A DNA stretch of 64,000 bases from Massalongia carnosa (lineage: Eukaryota): contig OZ287081.1 of NCBI GenBank assembly GCA_965645245.1, positions 1,240,001-1,304,000 of the forward strand. The letters are read 5' to 3'. Made by a program: the position numbers and the translations under genes. The notes beneath the pieces were generated by a model that was not told where the DNA came from, ran no database searches, and worked only from the letters and a program-made list of their open reading frames with translations. This document shows, piece after piece, positions 14,874-45,256 of this stretch. Every line of letters begins with the position of its first letter. Positions within the stretch are counted from its first letter, which is position 1.

Positions 14874-15780
14874 AATAAGAGCAGCAAGGTCCCAAAGAGA
14901 TGGAGGTCTATTAAACGAAGGTCGTTGAAATGAGGGGCACAAGGGGTTGCCGATACCAGAAAGTATGACGTAAGCTGTTTAATTGTTTATTACATGATCT
15001 GCGCAGGGATTACAATAATTACAATGAAGCTAATGCCTTGGTGTAAGATTCGATTCTCAATAGGTACCTGCTCATGGAGTACTCTGTACACAGTATTCTG
15101 TGTCACTGCTTTTATCCAAATACAGAGTACTCCCAGATATCTGCCCTGTTCAGCCATGTGGCTGGGTCATGCTGTTGAAGGAAGCGTTTACAAGTTGAAA
15201 ACAATTACAAAGTACTTCTTGAAGCACATGCCAAATAGTGAAATAACTAGATAATTACATACGAATGGATGATCAAGTGCCCAGATGCTGAATGACTGGA
15301 TAGGTGATTGAATAGATAGATGTACAGTTAAACGAACCCGTAAGCACGTACAGAATATGTTTAAAATAGGAGGGATGGATAGAGAATGATGGACCCAATG
15401 CACAGAAAATAGGTGGCAGAGTGCCAGAAGTCTCTGGATAGTACAGAACTTCTATGAATGAAATAATTCAGATTGTTGCGACTAATCTCTAGGCTATGCG
15501 TAGGAGTGATGTTATAGAACATTCGAGAATGTCTATAGACCTGAATTTCTAAGCATCGAAGATACCAGAAATTCTCAGATGTAACTATTCCCATATCAGT
15601 AAAATACGCGAAGGCATTCGCATATTACGTCAGATATGATCCAGCTGGCTTGGCATTCGCAACAGAATAGATAGGAATCCATGTAGCTATTTTTTGATAA
15701 TGAAATATTTATTAGAGTAAACACTAGATCAATCTTATGGTTCTTACACCATACAGATACTATAGCAAGAGTGTGACTTC

Positions 15781-16768
15781 CTACACCGTCACGTCTGCAT
15801 TCTTCCTCTTCCTTCTGTATTCTTTCAATGTTATCACCTTCCTCCTAAGATAAGACGCAACGAGACCCTTTTCTTTTTTAATTTCATCATGGGTCGATAT
15901 CCAATATTTTGCCCGACATATTCTTTGAGCTTTGAGGCCGTTATGAGCTCTAAGATTGAGATGCTTCAAGGAACTGAGGGTTATGTTATGAAGGCTATGG
16001 AGAAGTGCAAGCGTTCGCAGGGGTGGTGCGGCAAACTTCATATAGCAAAGGTCTCGTGCTTATATACCATGTGGCGTGTAAATAACACCCTCGCCCTCTC
16101 GAGCATCGGCTAACTATTTAGAACCATGAGTTGCATTTAGATCAAATGCTATGAGAATTGCTGAATGAAAGTAGAGTGAGTCGTGCTTAGCAACTATTCT
16201 GGATATTCCAAGCCAATGGGGTAATGGTAGAACAGAGCCTTTTCTCCAGTCGGGATCTTGCATAATGAAAGTAGATATGGCATGAACAGAATCGAAATGA
16301 TTCCACGATCTTATTAGTTCTGCCGCAGGCCCTACTGTGAACACGGGAGTTTTGGACAGAACTCGAGCAGTGTATTCTTGTTACAATCTGAGAATTCATG
16401 TGATATGACTATTGCATCGACAAGATCTTACGACAGGTCTACTTCCATGTTTTCTAGATTGCGTTTCATTATTCATGCAGCTTGGTCCCGGTCAAAATTA
16501 TCAAGGTATTCTAAAAGTTCGTTAAGCCCGCCAATGCTTTGTATGATCGATTTGGTTGCGTGCGATTGAGTCGAAAACTAAGTGGCCCTTGAAGTTATGG
16601 TTCTAGAACAACGTTGTATTACGAGCTTCCTATAAGAGGCAAAATATCCTGAGGGTAAGGAAGCTGTAGAAGGCAAGTTGTATCCGCATTTAGGTGAGTT
16701 ATGATCTGTCGACGAGTCTTTACGCTCTTACAGATGTTCTTCAGAAGTTGTAAAGTGGTGGCTTCCAT
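15781..16768 (-). pseudogene. Decayed conserved fungal protein (probable metallo-beta-lactamase fold)
   Basis: Collinear fragments IITHLNADTT.LLQLPYP, VDAIVISHEFSD, AAELIRSWNHF, LPHWLGISRI, YFHSAILI, VIYTPHGI, LNL.AHNGLKAQRICRAKYWISTHDE. Broken by several in-frame stops (e.g. 16619) and at least two frameshifts. Confidence 0.75.
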
Positions 16769-16775
16769 ACATTGG

Positions 16776-18012
16776 CACGCGCGTGACAGAAACAGGCGGA
16801 CACCAAAATAAGCGAATATCATCAAATTTGAACTTACTACCATCTATAAAATAATTACCATCTAGTCATCTTGCCATTCATGTCTAAAACATCATCTATT
16901 CTTTTAGGCATTGGTTCGATCCATTCATTGATCGTTTCCTGAGAAAGACTGACCCAACCCGCCTTAATTGCAGCTATTGTGGTGTCATCATCCCAATGAG
17001 GTTGACGACCTACCCGTTGTTTGGGCACCTGCCAGCAATTTTCGATAGGAGAGAGATCAGGAGAACGAGGGCAGTTGAAGTAGTATTTTAGCCCATGCTC
17101 GTCCTTCCCCGATCCATGTCCTGAATCGCCATCTTCTTCCAACACGAAAATCGGGTCTGTTTCGAGCCATGTTTTTACTACCGGTTCCAGAACGAAGTCA
17201 ATATACACCATCTGACTCATCTTTCCATTCAAATTGCCGGGAACCTCATAAAAAATCAGCTTTGATTTGAAGTTCCACCCCACAGCAGCCCAACAATGAT
17301 ATCGTTTCTGTTTTTTGTCCTTCTCTTCAGGCTCATGTTGTTCCTGAATGCAATCCTGACACGTACGCTCGCCAGGTTTTCGAATGATGCGTAGTCTTCG
17401 TTGAGGTCCTCGTCCGAAATGAACTTCATCGGAAAAGCGAACTCTTTTCCAATCATTCAACGAGTATGTGTTTCGTTTGTTCCAAGCCCAGTCCTTTCGT
17501 GCAATCATCAAATCTTTCGGGACGTAGGTTTTTGTGCGTGCGAGACATTTACGATAGTTTCGTTCATGCATCGCTCGTTGTATAGTACGCCAGGAGACGG
17601 AGGAAGTCTCAGCAGCTGCACCCAGTTGATTCCAGGTCAGTGATCTTCCCTCCAAGCCAGGTTTGCAATATTTCATCCATACGATCTATCTGCTTCTTTG
17701 ACAATTTGCGAGGCTGACCACGAGTCTCCGATTTGTTTGTATGATCATGCCGTCGATTAGTTTCTTGATCGTTGAGTATTTCATAACCTCGAGTATGTCC
17801 CACGCCGAAAAACTCGAAAACCTCTCGCTTTGAACGCAAAATCCCTTTCGCCTTGGTAGGAGTGGTATGCTCAGTATTTATAGTGATTCGTGACTCTAGA
17901 ACAGGCTCCATTGCTTATAAAGAATTGTGTATGTACGATGTAAAAATTAAAAAACTAAGGTGTGGGTGGTGCGGGGAAATTTTGGTGTCCGCCTGTTTCT
18001 GTCACGCGCGTG
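16776..18012 (-). mobile_element. Tc1/mariner-like DNA transposon with 34-bp perfect TIRs and atypical 5-bp TSD (ATTGG)
   Basis: TIR CACGCGCGTGACAGAAACAGGCGGACACCAAAAT at 16776-16809 and its reverse complement at 17979-18012. ATTGG lies directly outside both ends (16771-16775, 18013-18017). Internal transposase. Confidence 0.92.
16855..17911 (-). pseudogene. Tc1-like (DDE) transposase, frameshifted
   Basis: N-terminal ORF with RGQPRKL (GRPR-like linker), a frameshift near 17660, then WKRVRFSDEVHF, FVLEEDGDSGHG, SPDLSPIENCW and MPKRIDDVL..NG.MT.W. Confidence 0.88.
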
Positions 18013-18221
18013 ATTGGTTGGCACATCAAGGTTGTAAGCGAAACTATTGTAGTACCTTGTACGAACACTGTAATAAACCCGCCGTACGCATGTATTTTCT
18101 TAATATACCAGTACACATACTCGAGTAGGTATTTACCCAGATAGGTAATTTATTTCCTTAGTGATACAGCTAAAATATCTGTGTTTTTTAATTACATAAT
18201 ATCAATAATTGATTAAACTTA

Positions 18222-20871
18222 GGCTACGGATAGAAGCACACCCCTTTGGTTACCCACACACCCCCGGTGGTTACCCACACACCCAACCCTAAAGTAGCTT
18301 AAGTTTGAAAAGTTTCTTCGGCCACTTTCCCTTATCGGGTGACCATCTTTCCTAACTAGGGAATTTTGATCCTGCATCTTCATTCTGCGTTTTCCCTGCA
18401 TTGATACCCCGCATTACTGACGCCACGTCGTCATCATGAGTCTTCGTCCTCCAGAAGATGGACAATCCTTCGAATCACTGGATGACCTTGTTATTCGTGT
18501 TAATGAGCATGCCGCCCCACAAGGATATGCCATCGTGTTAAGCCGGACCAAGAAATCGAAACTCGGAATAAGAAGAAAGGCCTGGTTGATTTGTGATCGA
18601 GGAGGAAAGCCCCGAGGTCCTCAGGGACAGGAAAGACGTCATACCAGCAGTAGATGCATAGAATGTCCGTTTCTTCTGACTGCCAAGCGAATGGAAGAAG
18701 ATGGAGGTGCCTGGATTCTGGAGGTGGTAAATGAGGAACATAATCATTCGTCCAGTCTCGCTGGCGCCCATCCGGTTCATAGAAGAATGGCGATGACAGC
18801 AGAAGTGAAAAGTGAGATATCTCGTCAAATTAACAGTGCAAGTAGCACCTTCCAAAGTTTTATCTAGTCTTCGCATTCCTGATCCCACTTTGGGATCAGT
18901 CAACACGGACGATCCGGCCGATCCTCAGATTATTAATCCTCTTTTCAAACCTCGAGATATCTATAATCACAAAGCTCAGATGCGTCGCGACATTCTGGGA
19001 CCGCTTACCCCCGTGCAGGCATTGATTCAAGAGTTGGATCGAGGGCATTGGACATACCACATGCAGAAAGATGAGCTGAATCGCATCACTCATCTCTTCT
19101 TCGTCAGAGAAAGCTCCCAAACTCTTCTGAAGACAAACTATGAGGTGTTGGTAATGGACTGCACCTACAAGACAAATCGATATCGCATGCCTCTTCTTAT
19201 TGTAAGTGGTCAGACCAGTCTGCATACAAATTTCTATGTGGCTTTCTGTTTCATGGCATCAGAAACCACCGCCGATTACACGTGGGTATTGTCTCATCTG
19301 AAGGCATTGTATTTGCAACTCGAACTTCCTGATCCAGTCGTTATCGTCACTGATATGGAACGTGCTTTGATGTCCGCTATTGATCAGACTTTTCCGAACA
19401 CTAATCATCTTCTTTGCATTTGGCACATCAACAACAACATCGTAGCCAGTTGTAAGAAAAGCTTTGATACCAAAGAAGCATGGGATGCCTTCTTTGCTGA
19501 ATGGAAATCCATCGTATACGCCACTACCGAACCGGAATTCTGGCAACTATGGGGGCGGTTTTGTGGTACGATTCCTGGAAATTGCGTGGAGTATATCACC
19601 TCAACTTATTTGTCTTTTCGGCATCATTTCGTCAAATGCTACACTGACAAGATGTTGCATTTTGATACCACGACGACATCTCGAGGTGAAGGCGGTCATG
19701 CAGTTTTGAAACGTCAGCTGGGATCATCGACCGGAGATCTGAAGACGGTGGTGGATGGCATCAACTTACTATTGATCAATGAACTTCACAACTATCTTAT
19801 TACATTCAACGAAGCCAGAGACCGACTTCCCATGGATCTTCGAAAACCAGTGTTTCAGCGATTAACCGGACTCGTCACCCCTCATGCCCTACGAAAGATG
19901 CTTCTTCAGTACAATCTTGTGGTCGGACGACCCATAGTATTGGGGCCTTGCACCCATGCTTACACCATCACAACTGGACTTCCATGTAGTCATAAATCCA
20001 GGAAAGGTTGTATGAGGAAGGAAGTCTGTTGATTGAAGACGTTCATCCACATTGGAGGTAGGTTATTGGATACATTCAGAGTTTCCCTGCGATTACTAAC
20101 TATTGTAGGTTTCAGAGAACCATGCCTGCCAATACGAGGAATGACTTACTATTGGTGCAAGAACCGGAGATGGCAAGAACTCGAGGACGTCCTCAAGGAG
20201 CTGAGAATCTCAACAGAAGGACCATAGCATTTGAGGCCTCTACCAATCGAGTACCTTCTCAATTCGAACGTGTCGAGATGGAGACAGCTGGGATAAACGA
20301 GATAGTCGATCCAGAGGTGGAACGTGTTATACAAAGAGCCGATCCAGCACCCGGAAAACGAGGAAGGCCACGAGGTCGACCCCGAGGTGTAGGAAAAGGG
20401 GCGGGACAAGGTGGAAGAAAGAAACAACCGAAATCAGCTGGCATGGGGGGACAATCAGAATTAGCTGGCACAGGGGGACAATCAGAATTAGCTGGCACGG
20501 GGGGATAATCAGAATCAGCTGGCACGGGATACAGGCCACAGGCGGAGTAGCTAGGCTGCAAAAAGACTGGTCTAATCAAATCGTGGTCTGATTGACGAAG
20601 ATGGTCTCAATCGACTCCGTTTGAAAAAGTTGGGTCAGAGCTGGCAAGGGGTGTACAGCTAGGCACGTGCCAGGTGATTAAGTAAAATATTAGGTAGTGG
20701 GGAAAAGTTTAACGGCTTAACCTAGTTAGGAAAGGTGGTCAGCCAATAAGGGAAAGTGGCCAAAGAAACTTAAGCTACTTTAGGGTAGGGTGTGTGGGTA
20801 ACCACCGGGGGTGTGTGGGTAACCGAGGGGGGTGTGTGGGTAATCAAAGGGGTGTGCTTCTATCCGTACCC
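18222..20871 (+). mobile_element. Mutator-like element (MULE) with ~140-150-bp TIRs and 8-bp TSD
   Basis: Left TIR GGCTACGGATAGAAGCACACCCCTTTG...CCTAACTAGG (18222-18360) matches the inverted right TIR at 20721-20871. TAAACTTA is duplicated at 18214-18221 and 20872-20879. Confidence 0.93.
18436..20508 (+). pseudogene. MULE transposase (FAR1-like Zn domain, DDE domain, SWIM-like CxH, AT-hook) with two 1-bp frameshifts
   Basis: CDRGG...CPF...W...HNH; VMDCTYKTNRYRMPL; VIVTDMERAL; LLCIWHI; SRGEGGH; GLPCSH; KRGRPRGRPRG. Frameshifts near 18828 and 19995; probable intron at ~20058-20108. Confidence 0.88.
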
Positions 20872-43537: not shown

Positions 43538-45256
43538 CGGAGGTTGACACGAAAAGTCCTTGGTAGCGTGCATTAGTGCTGTTTTATCGTCATGTAGAAA
43601 GAACGCTAACAATTCAATAGGGGTTTCTTATATATATTATACACTTTGACCTATGCAGCATCTTTTATTTATCAAATATCATCAAGTAAAATTTTATATG
43701 CTTCAAATCATGACATCACGAACTCAGAACAATAGTCTGACCATTGGTCAAAATTTACAAGCATTGTCTTTGATTGAACATGGCATAACAGCCAAAGTCG
43801 TTCAAGCAGTCACCGGAGTCTCCATTCAGTCTATCAGCTATCTCAAACGCAAGGCACGAGATCGAGGATATGATCCCACTGTTTCGCGAATACTGAAGGT
43901 AGAATACGTGCGAGATGCACCTCGTTCAGGATGTCCTCTCAAAGTGACGCCTGAGATAGAACAGGCCATTTTAAATAACGTTCGTCATGATCGAAATAGT
44001 AGAAGAAAATCTTCAGCCGTTTTGGAATATGAACACGAAGTTTCATCTACAACTTTCCTCAATGTTCTTCGACGCAATAATTTTCGTTCCTGCAAAACTA
44101 CTATGAAACCGGGCCTTGATTCAGCAATGAAAGAAGCTCGATTGCAATTTTGTTTGCGCTATCGTCACTGGGCTCTCGATGATTGGAAGAATGTTATATG
44201 GAGCGATGAAACCAGTGTCGTGTTGGGCTCTCGACGAGGACGAAGACTTCAATGGCGAACTCCAAACGAAAAATATGCTCAAACATGCATCCGACGTAGA
44301 TGGAAAGGATGTTCCGAGTTCATGTTTTGGGGTTCTTTTTCGTATGAAAAGAAAGGTCCTTTTCATATATGGAAGCCGGAGACAGCAGCAGAAAAACACG
44401 GCACTCAAAAAGGAATTGACAAAATCAATGAGGCACTGGAGCCTCTAGCGAAAGAAAACTGGGAATTGGAAACGGGGATGAAACGAATGGGACTGCGTAC
44501 CAAAGGAGGCCGAAAACCAGCCTGGAGATGGGACGAAAAGCATGGAAAAGTGGTCCGAAAAGGCAAAAGAGGCATCGACTGGTATCGTTATCAAAAGATC
44601 ATTCTTCTTTCCAAACTTCTACCGTTTGCCAAAGAATGTATGAAAGATCGTCTCGATACTATTGTACAGGAGGACAAGGCTCCCAGTCATGCTTCTAAAC
44701 ATCAAGACCTCGTCTTTATGGATGCAGGAGTCTTGCGTTTATTGTGGCCGGGTAATTCTCCCGATTTGAACATGATCGAGCAATGTTGGTCCTGGATGAA
44801 AAGAAAAACCACACGAAAAGGAGCACCTCGAAATCGCATAACGGCTACCAAAACATGGACTCAGTGTTGGACAAAAAGTCTGAAACAAAAACAGATTCAG
44901 CACTGGATAGAACGAATTCCACGACATATAGAGGAAGTCATCGCTTTGAATGGAGGAAATGAGTATCGAGAGGGTCGAGACAATGGTGTGATTCGACCAT
45001 ATAATACCGAAGATCGTCGCATTCGTTATTGTAAAGACATTATATCTGATGACAGTGATGTAGATTGATGATGTCATAAGTTTGTATGTAGGCCTGATTT
45101 TTAATGCATTATATCGTTTGAAAATGAGGTTGATGTACTTCGTAGAAAATACTGTGGTAGAGACGATAAATCAAATATAGAAAAGGGGCAGTGGCGCTAC
45201 GCTAAATCCTTAGTGTCATTATTAGCGCATCCAAGGACTTTTCGTGTCAACCTCCG
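43538..45256 (+). mobile_element. Tc1/mariner DD34E transposon, full length, TA TSD
   Basis: 26-bp perfect TIR CGGAGGTTGACACGAAAAGTCCTTGG at 43538-43563 and inverted at 45231-45256, with TA on both sides. Confidence 0.95.
43710..45068 (+). CDS. Tc1-like DD34E transposase, uninterrupted ORF
   Basis: PRSGCP linker, VIWSDET (D1), VQEDKAPSH (D2), WPGNSPDLNMIE (E), with 34 residues between D2 and E. In-frame upstream ATGs exist from 43653. Confidence 0.92.
   Translation: MTSRTQNNSLTIGQNLQALSLIEHGITAKVVQAVTGVSIQSISYLKRKARDRGYDPTVSRILKVEYVRDAPRSGCPLKVTPEIEQAILNNVRHDRNSRRKSSAVLEYEHEVSSTTFLNVLRRNNFRSCKTTMKPGLDSAMKEARLQFCLRYRHWALDDWKNVIWSDETSVVLGSRRGRRLQWRTPNEKYAQTCIRRRWKGCSEFMFWGSFSYEKKGPFHIWKPETAAEKHGTQKGIDKINEALEPLAKENWELETGMKRMGLRTKGGRKPAWRWDEKHGKVVRKGKRGIDWYRYQKIILLSKLLPFAKECMKDRLDTIVQEDKAPSHASKHQDLVFMDAGVLRLLWPGNSPDLNMIEQCWSWMKRKTTRKGAPRNRITATKTWTQCWTKSLKQKQIQHWIERIPRHIEEVIALNGGNEYREGRDNGVIRPYNTEDRRIRYCKDIISDDSDVD

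Follow-up and report, generated by a model that had tools for sequence, protein, structure and literature searches.

The window analysed here is a 64,000-nucleotide stretch of the Massalongia carnosa genome (assembly GCA_965645245.1, contig OZ287081.1, positions 1,240,001 to 1,304,000 of the forward strand), and our subject is a Tc1-like transposon that, together with its target-site duplications (TSDs), occupies positions 16771 to 18017 of that stretch. The element is bounded by two 34 nt terminal inverted repeats (TIRs), one at the downstream end of the transposase gene (16776-16809, plus strand) and one at the upstream end (17979-18012, minus strand), whose arms are 100% complementary and show no outward extension. 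The 5-mer ATTGG lies directly outside each arm, as a left copy at 16771-16775 and a matching right copy at 18013-18017 (neither assigned to a strand), and TA adjoins neither end. Between the repeats, the minus strand carries a Tc1-like transposase pseudogene (16855-17911, start at 17911; DDE_3 domain, E-value 4e-8), within which the frame from 16855 to 17685 holds the motifs FSDE, EDGDSGHG, FNC and SPDLSPIENCW. An initial annotation, made from the sequence alone, had described the perfect TIRs, the ATTGG pair, the missing TA and an enzyme of Tc1 type. The coordinates and the arm complementarity bear out the structural description, and the motifs, the DDE_3 domain and a best PDB match to Sleeping Beauty (see below) bear out the enzyme type. 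It had further proposed a fungal Tc1 lineage with an altered target duplication, a proposal upheld by the variable 5 bp duplications, single-copy empty sites and single clade described below.

What the annotation missed is that this copy is defective. Longer relatives reveal four deletions: one of 2 bp near 17656, which causes a frameshift, two in frame, of 33 bp near 17844 and 24 bp near 17100, and one of 9 bp near 17925. The 24 bp loss falls in the spacer between the second catalytic aspartate and the glutamate and produces a false DD29E spacing, which we therefore rejected as genuine. The 24 bp and 2 bp deletions are common to five two-ended copies (L001-L005), which share at least 99.6% identity and occupy five different sites. 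Because such identity is found at sites with different TSDs, this broken subfamily appears to have been amplified recently in trans by an intact relative; uninterrupted 371-aa frames are present in relatives in the same genome. An alignment of L001-L011 shows few changes between copies. Judging from it, repeat-induced point mutation seems to act only weakly, if at all, on this family in this genome, since the excess of C-to-T and G-to-A changes is mild and a GC content of about 44% is retained.

The initial annotation had called for the flanks of other copies to be tabulated. The M. carnosa genome (52 Mb in 25 contigs) yielded 75 DNA matches and 110 scored protein matches from 1112 candidates, and relatives 33-61% identical to the lineage transposase P0001 were taken from metagenomes. 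TSDs were called from the position of the termini, with no use of the flanking sequence, by a procedure run on L001-L173 and L240-L269 (203 loci, many of them redundant). Identical sites were collapsed, terminal hexamers came from earlier passes and termini were required to fit C[AT][AC][GA]; the resulting counts omit loci without two recognisable ends and a 2 bp sister family described below. Among 55 two-ended sites of the M. carnosa genome, 42 carry an exact 5 bp TSD, five have one mismatch and eight have more. The 29 two-ended metagenome sites, from 80 loci, give 18 exact duplications, one with a single mismatch and ten with more. Overall, the duplication is exactly 5 bp at 60/84 sites and TA flanks both ends at 0/84.

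The duplicated 5-mers vary between copies. The TIR family of the window element has 11 distinct two-ended sites (L034, a repeat of the L004 site, is not counted separately). At ten of them the 5 bp duplication is exact, each time with another 5-mer, and at the remaining one a single base is mismatched. Across 29 sites of the M. carnosa genome there are 27 different 5-mers with no fixed dinucleotide within them. In an earlier pass over 77 pairs, exact duplications of 6 bp and of 8-10 bp were absent, and one of 7 bp was found. By comparison, two 5-mers drawn at random from the window agree with a frequency of 0.00094, and when the left flank of one insertion is paired with the right flank of another, 27 of 5852 such cross pairs agree. 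The ATTGG match at a single site could be chance; the copies elsewhere rule that out.

The same ends are also found on miniature non-coding derivatives of 253-620 bp (L028, 1431-2050; L029, 1396-1660; L037, 6744-6996), which are flanked by 5 bp duplications, one of them mismatched. Host repeats have, in their various copies, taken up members of different 5 bp families at the same point or a few bases apart (L004, 1486-1505, with L064; L006, 1481-1500, with L202), and these places are insertion hotspots. A search of viral contigs gave one weak partial match only.

Empty sites also bear on the duplication. L007, which is 97% identical to the window copy, sits in a host repeat of which 11 paralogs were fetched, and its 5-mer CCAGG occurs once in all 11. 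One empty paralog each was found for L064, L077, L086 and L073 (for the last the left match is only 19 bp), and in every case the 5-mer is single. Comparison of filled with empty sites shows a gain of the element plus exactly 5 bp. A 3 bp TSD with shifted ends was considered and rejected, since the extra bases are not complementary and the empty sites gain exactly 5. For L004 and L033 no clean empty pair was obtained, their flanks coming from different repeats or lying at repeat ends.

The initial annotation had also suggested relaxed target choice, and this holds in part. The 5-mers are variable and TA/TA is absent, yet the choice is not fully relaxed: the 60 exact sites (120 half-sites) give a weak palindromic consensus, TAN-SCWGS-NTA. 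Outside the duplication TA is enriched: 38 of 120 half-sites have it at -3/-2, compared with 7.2% in the background, and none of the 120 has C at -2, for which the background is 23%. The GC-rich core and the avoidance of C at -2 are seen separately in the sites of the M. carnosa genome and in those of the metagenomes.

The termini themselves read C[AT][CA]G followed by an A tract. A stands at position 2 in 88 of 96 termini and C at position 3 in 74 of 96, and ends beginning CAAG and CTCG also occur in the lineage, so that the CAC termini on which a resemblance to Transib/RAG elements had been suggested are not a constant feature. The first 10 bp of the window element do form the perfect palindrome that had been pointed out; a perfect 10 bp palindrome is found in only 19 of 96 termini, and we rejected it as a functional hallmark and regard it as incidental.

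The transposase places the lineage with Tc1 in architecture. A DDE_3 domain scores above the cut-off and HTH_Tnp_Tc3_2 below it (E-value 7e-5), and the layout is that of Tc1, with an N-terminal paired helix-turn-helix (HTH) region and DDE_3 encoded in one open reading frame (ORF) between short TIRs. The best PDB sequence match is the Sleeping Beauty transposase SB100X (E-value 1.6e-22 with a profile). An AlphaFold model (predicted local distance difference test score of 85) has the Sleeping Beauty catalytic domain as its best fold match (Z 20.9, root-mean-square deviation (rmsd) 3.6 over 200 residues). Z scores of the predicted structure against Sleeping Beauty, Metnase and Mos1 range from 18.6 to 20.9 (Mos1, 19.0) and those against integrases, the next unrelated matches, do not exceed 10.2; a Foldseek comparison of the model with Mos1 (5hoo) gives an E-value of 3e-9. 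On this model the predicted catalytic fold is of the Sleeping Beauty/Mos1 type. The DNA-binding part of the model resembles the Tc3 DNA-binding domain weakly (Z 4.7, rmsd 4.4 over 101 residues). Transib/RAG1 is absent from the fold-match lists, which alone excludes nothing.

The spacing of the catalytic triad departs from the DD34E of canonical Tc1. In P0001 the triad is D173-D272-E310, that is, DD37E, and among 182 proteins with the SPDL motif the spacing from the second aspartate to the glutamate is 37 in 71, 38 in 48, 34 in four and another value in 20, with 39 unscored. The deviations from usual motifs that had been noted in the window copy, DGDSGH and FNC, are lineage-wide. WP before SPDL is found in 0/50 proteins and [FYH]N in 48/50; the sister and TA families keep WP. 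In a 54-protein alignment, the K/R-aromatic-x-G motif where the clamp loop ends occurs in 0/34 scorable proteins, the loop end being longer and acidic, and a proline at the position of Sleeping Beauty P247, after the second aspartate, occurs in 0/40.

Homologues of the transposase number 166 at an E-value of 1e-10 or better. They include proteins from Colletotrichum, Pyrenophora, Ophiobolus, Fonsecaea, Rutstroemia, Xylogone, Pseudogymnoascus, Hirsutella and Parathielavia, and among the named matches listed none is annotated as an unusual transposase. A profile search returned 577 cluster representatives at 1e-30, a set that must include canonical Tc1. We built a tree of 47 rows with outgroup rows that we take to be IS630/Gambol-like. 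These came from the genome's 30 top DDE_3 loci, so labelled, for which no TIR pair was found within the fetched flanks and which served as outgroup only. Thirteen of the 29 intended 5 bp rows and one outgroup row were omitted for want of a stop-free frame of 150 residues, and one further 5 bp row was too short. The 15 rows labelled 5 bp form one side of a branch with support of 100/100, and group at 100/99 with a family that duplicates 2 bp at TA or AA, among TA-type DD34E Tc1 elements of the same genome. On this tree, of limited sampling, the 5 bp elements appear as one clade across filamentous ascomycetes, probably descended from within Tc1.

The sister family (L290-L310 in the M. carnosa genome, with proteins from L241 and L259) has the motifs EDGNRAH and WPPCSPDL and a TIR that begins CAAGGTTGGGTGAC, similar to the TIRs of the 5 bp lineage. 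Its ten two-ended copies are flanked by TA/TA in four cases, AA/AA in three and TA/TG in one, and in two of them one end is damaged or runs up against another element. This family therefore duplicates 2 bp at TA or AA and is a relaxed-target family of the ITm (IS630-Tc1-mariner) group in its own right. For canonical DD34E Tc1 elements of the same genome 40 ends were found, of which 38 show TA and the other two have altered termini. The window itself holds a TA-flanked Tc1-like element at 43538-45256. Its frame of 452 aa is open and bears the motifs EDKAPSH and WPGNSPDL, and the first and second catalytic aspartates are separated by a long insertion.

Taken together, these data make it very probable that the window element is a defective, recent copy from a fungal, Tc1-derived lineage with variable 5 bp TSDs, whose DD37/38E transposase likely joins its ends to the target five bases apart. 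Passages of PMC5481204 describe how Mos1 joins strictly at TA with a 2 bp stagger: it bends the target and flips adenines, F187 beside R186 fills the gap, and the target contacts comprise R186, F187, K190, W159 and V214. In passages of PMC8934666, H187, P247 and K248 of Sleeping Beauty shape target choice, and single changes at these residues shift preference around TA, with no change in duplication length reported there. In the 5 bp lineage, movement would be by cut-and-paste, carried out by a transposase dimer as in the Tc1 family, with the deleted subfamily moved in trans by an intact relative. The active sites would attack the target strands 5 bp apart, and host gap repair would write the duplication. 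Remodelled loops may have abolished the central adenine flip used by Mos1, leaving a target that would be less bent and read weakly over about 11 bp. The change may have arisen within Tc1 by way of an ancestor that resembled the sister family, with 2 bp duplications at AA as well as TA. As a cause of the 5 bp stagger, the loop changes are suggested by a correlation within one clade.

Several observations weigh against this account. Exact 5 bp matches are missing at 24/84 two-ended sites (six with one mismatch, 18 with more). Two of these misses, L074 (685-2008) and L075 (698-2020), are opposed copies about 11 kb apart whose flanks have been exchanged by an inversion, and undoing the inversion restores two 5 bp duplications; the remaining inexact sites have no explanation, several being short and possibly chimeric metagenome contigs. 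L114 (668-2024) carries a 7 bp duplication, and L107 and L253 carry 5 bp plus two to three extra bases on one side; these may reflect inaccurate joining, footprints or a sub-lineage whose stagger differs. Four matches to paralogs of the L064 repeat, at three places, overlap by 3 rather than 5, because a run of C is two bases longer there. The half-sites behind the target consensus are not all independent, some lying within the same host repeats. The tree includes no named Repbase references, one of its 5 bp rows (L015) has a TSD with one mismatch, and its scored TSDs cover the two clades, with further proteins (P0227, P0242, P0251 and others) lying between them. The putative link between loops and stagger draws on a single evolutionary event. 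Finally, the empty site of the window element itself was not found: across 15300-18500, four public sequencing runs gave no joint across the element. Two of them carry the insertion: a contig of X2 passes from the left flank into the TIR, and that flank is also covered in X4. The left flank is missing from X1 and coverage by X5 at the locus is thin, so this search is evidence for neither side.

The inexact joints bring up the best-surviving alternative, in which the enzyme stagger is shorter, 2-3 bp, and the longer duplication results from host repair or from re-insertion beside excision footprints. The few sites with 7 bp, or with 5 bp and extra bases, would fit such a process, and the ITm group has 3 bp exceptions in Tc4, TBE and Zator. 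However, the length is sharply 5 at most sites, empty sites gain exactly the element and 5 bp, and the 5-mers contain no fixed dinucleotide. We consider this explanation improbable.

A still less probable alternative is that an unrelated transposase with a 5 bp stagger, of the Transib, hAT5 or CMCT kind, recognises the CA...TG ends and moves the elements in trans, the Tc1 gene being cargo. The window copy is indeed non-autonomous, and according to passages of PMC12730594 the CMCT clade typically has CA...TG ends and TSDs of 2-5 bp and hAT5 makes 5 bp TSDs. Yet every family comes with a TIR of its own and with just one ORF, of Tc1 type and likewise its own, many of these frames being open, and the 5 bp state tracks the protein tree across relatives of 33-61% identity and many samples. 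Furthermore, the sister family combines similar TIRs with 2 bp TSDs, canonical Tc1 ends likewise begin with C-A, and Transib is reported absent from fungi in passages of PMC5751038. The idea that the ATTGG pair is a coincidence beside an ordinary TA-type Tc1 with misplaced ends has almost no probability left: a lone 5-mer match does arise by chance with a probability of about 0.001-0.005, but perfect TIRs common to the copies fix the ends, the flanks vary between copies, and the absence of TA/TA at 84 sites together with single-copy empty sites refutes it.

Returning to the Tc1-derived lineage with a 5 bp duplication, we lean modestly towards a broader proposal. It would be an undescribed ITm family, common in filamentous ascomycetes, in which a 2 bp joint at TA became a 5 bp joint by remodelling of three target-contact loops; the same genome would still harbour a 2 bp TA/AA intermediate, and the preference for TA would now lie outside the duplication. 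Enzymes of the mariner/Tc1/IS630 group are described in passages of PMC5481204 as strictly TA-specific with a 2 bp stagger, and the 5 bp clade departs from that description. [quoted passage not shown] With the 5 bp clade, its 2 bp TA/AA sister and TA-type Tc1 in one genome, what sets stagger and target in a DDE transposase becomes testable. If the proposal is true, the clade would be a natural experiment on the evolution of stagger and sequence choice and a natural handle on the insertion-site choice of Tc1/Sleeping Beauty gene-delivery tools. It might also be turned into a tool resembling Sleeping Beauty, a vector of Tc1 type that does not need TA, with GC-rich and less constrained targets.

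The surroundings of the window element are themselves partly repetitive. Upstream of a unique left flank, 15300-15727 is a very high-depth repeat in all four sequencing runs. On the right, repeated DNA begins near 18238, and a Mutator-like (MULE) transposase with a FAR1 domain lies in two frames at 18421-20032.

The literature covered yielded no account of 5 bp TSDs in a Tc1 lineage; Repbase, Repbase Reports, Dfam, most subscription papers and bioRxiv supplements were outside that scope and may hold a prior record. Passages of PMC10085805, PMC9977792, PMC11544213, PMC2817418, PMC2836289, PMC3441728, PMC2851567 and PMC6737239 concern only long terminal repeat (LTR) TSDs, TA-type elements or unassigned repeats, and the motifs of the lineage were not found in six supplements of PMC7325037, alignment files being outside the scope. 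Passages of PMC4522978 describe unassigned MITE families of Zymoseptoria tritici with TSDs of 5-6 bp. These are ascomycete TIR elements with duplications like those of the 5 bp lineage, which also yields miniatures; the passages assign them no transposase, and the likeness is one of description, so the link is a lead only.

Among systems with a known transposase, TRT elements and other DD37E families share DD37E spacing and affinity to Tc1, but in passages of PMC5630946 TRT has a TA TSD and a Q/HDNA motif, neither of which the lineage has. The survey in those passages finds fungal relatives of TRT only in Mucoromycotina and none in Dikarya. Mos1 mariner belongs to the same fold family, but the lineage alignment shows no residues similar to those with which Mos1 reads TA. 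Transib/RAG, other CMCT elements and hAT5 share 5 bp TSDs and CA...TG termini with it. Transib, however, has a RAG1-core-like transposase, in contrast to the 371-aa DDE_3 enzyme of the lineage, which sequence and tree place with Tc1. The likeness to Transib/RAG ends is superficial, because CAC is not fixed, and nothing points to Transib. The hAT superfamily nevertheless supplies a precedent, since hAT5, hAT6 and hAT7 show shifts of TSD length inside one superfamily (passages of PMC12730594); hAT5 and hAT6 were published in Repbase Reports.

The closest comparison is with Tc1 itself, represented by Sleeping Beauty SB100X (PDB 5cr4) and the fungal impala-like DD34E elements. The lineage and Tc1 both have elements of about 1.3 kb with short TIRs and one ORF of about 370 aa, and share a paired HTH region with DDE_3, the FSDE and SPDLxPIE motifs and the same predicted fold. 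In contrast, the lineage has a variable 5 bp TSD in place of TA, DD37/38E in place of DD34E, EDGDSGH in place of QDNDPKH and FNC in place of WP. The end of its clamp loop is longer, acidic and lacks K/R-aromatic-x-G, and its target has a GC-rich core with TA enriched outside. We do not file it as canonical Tc1 because two defining features, TA and DD34E, fail. The lineage probably works like Tc1 and descends from within it, yet it is not canonical Tc1.
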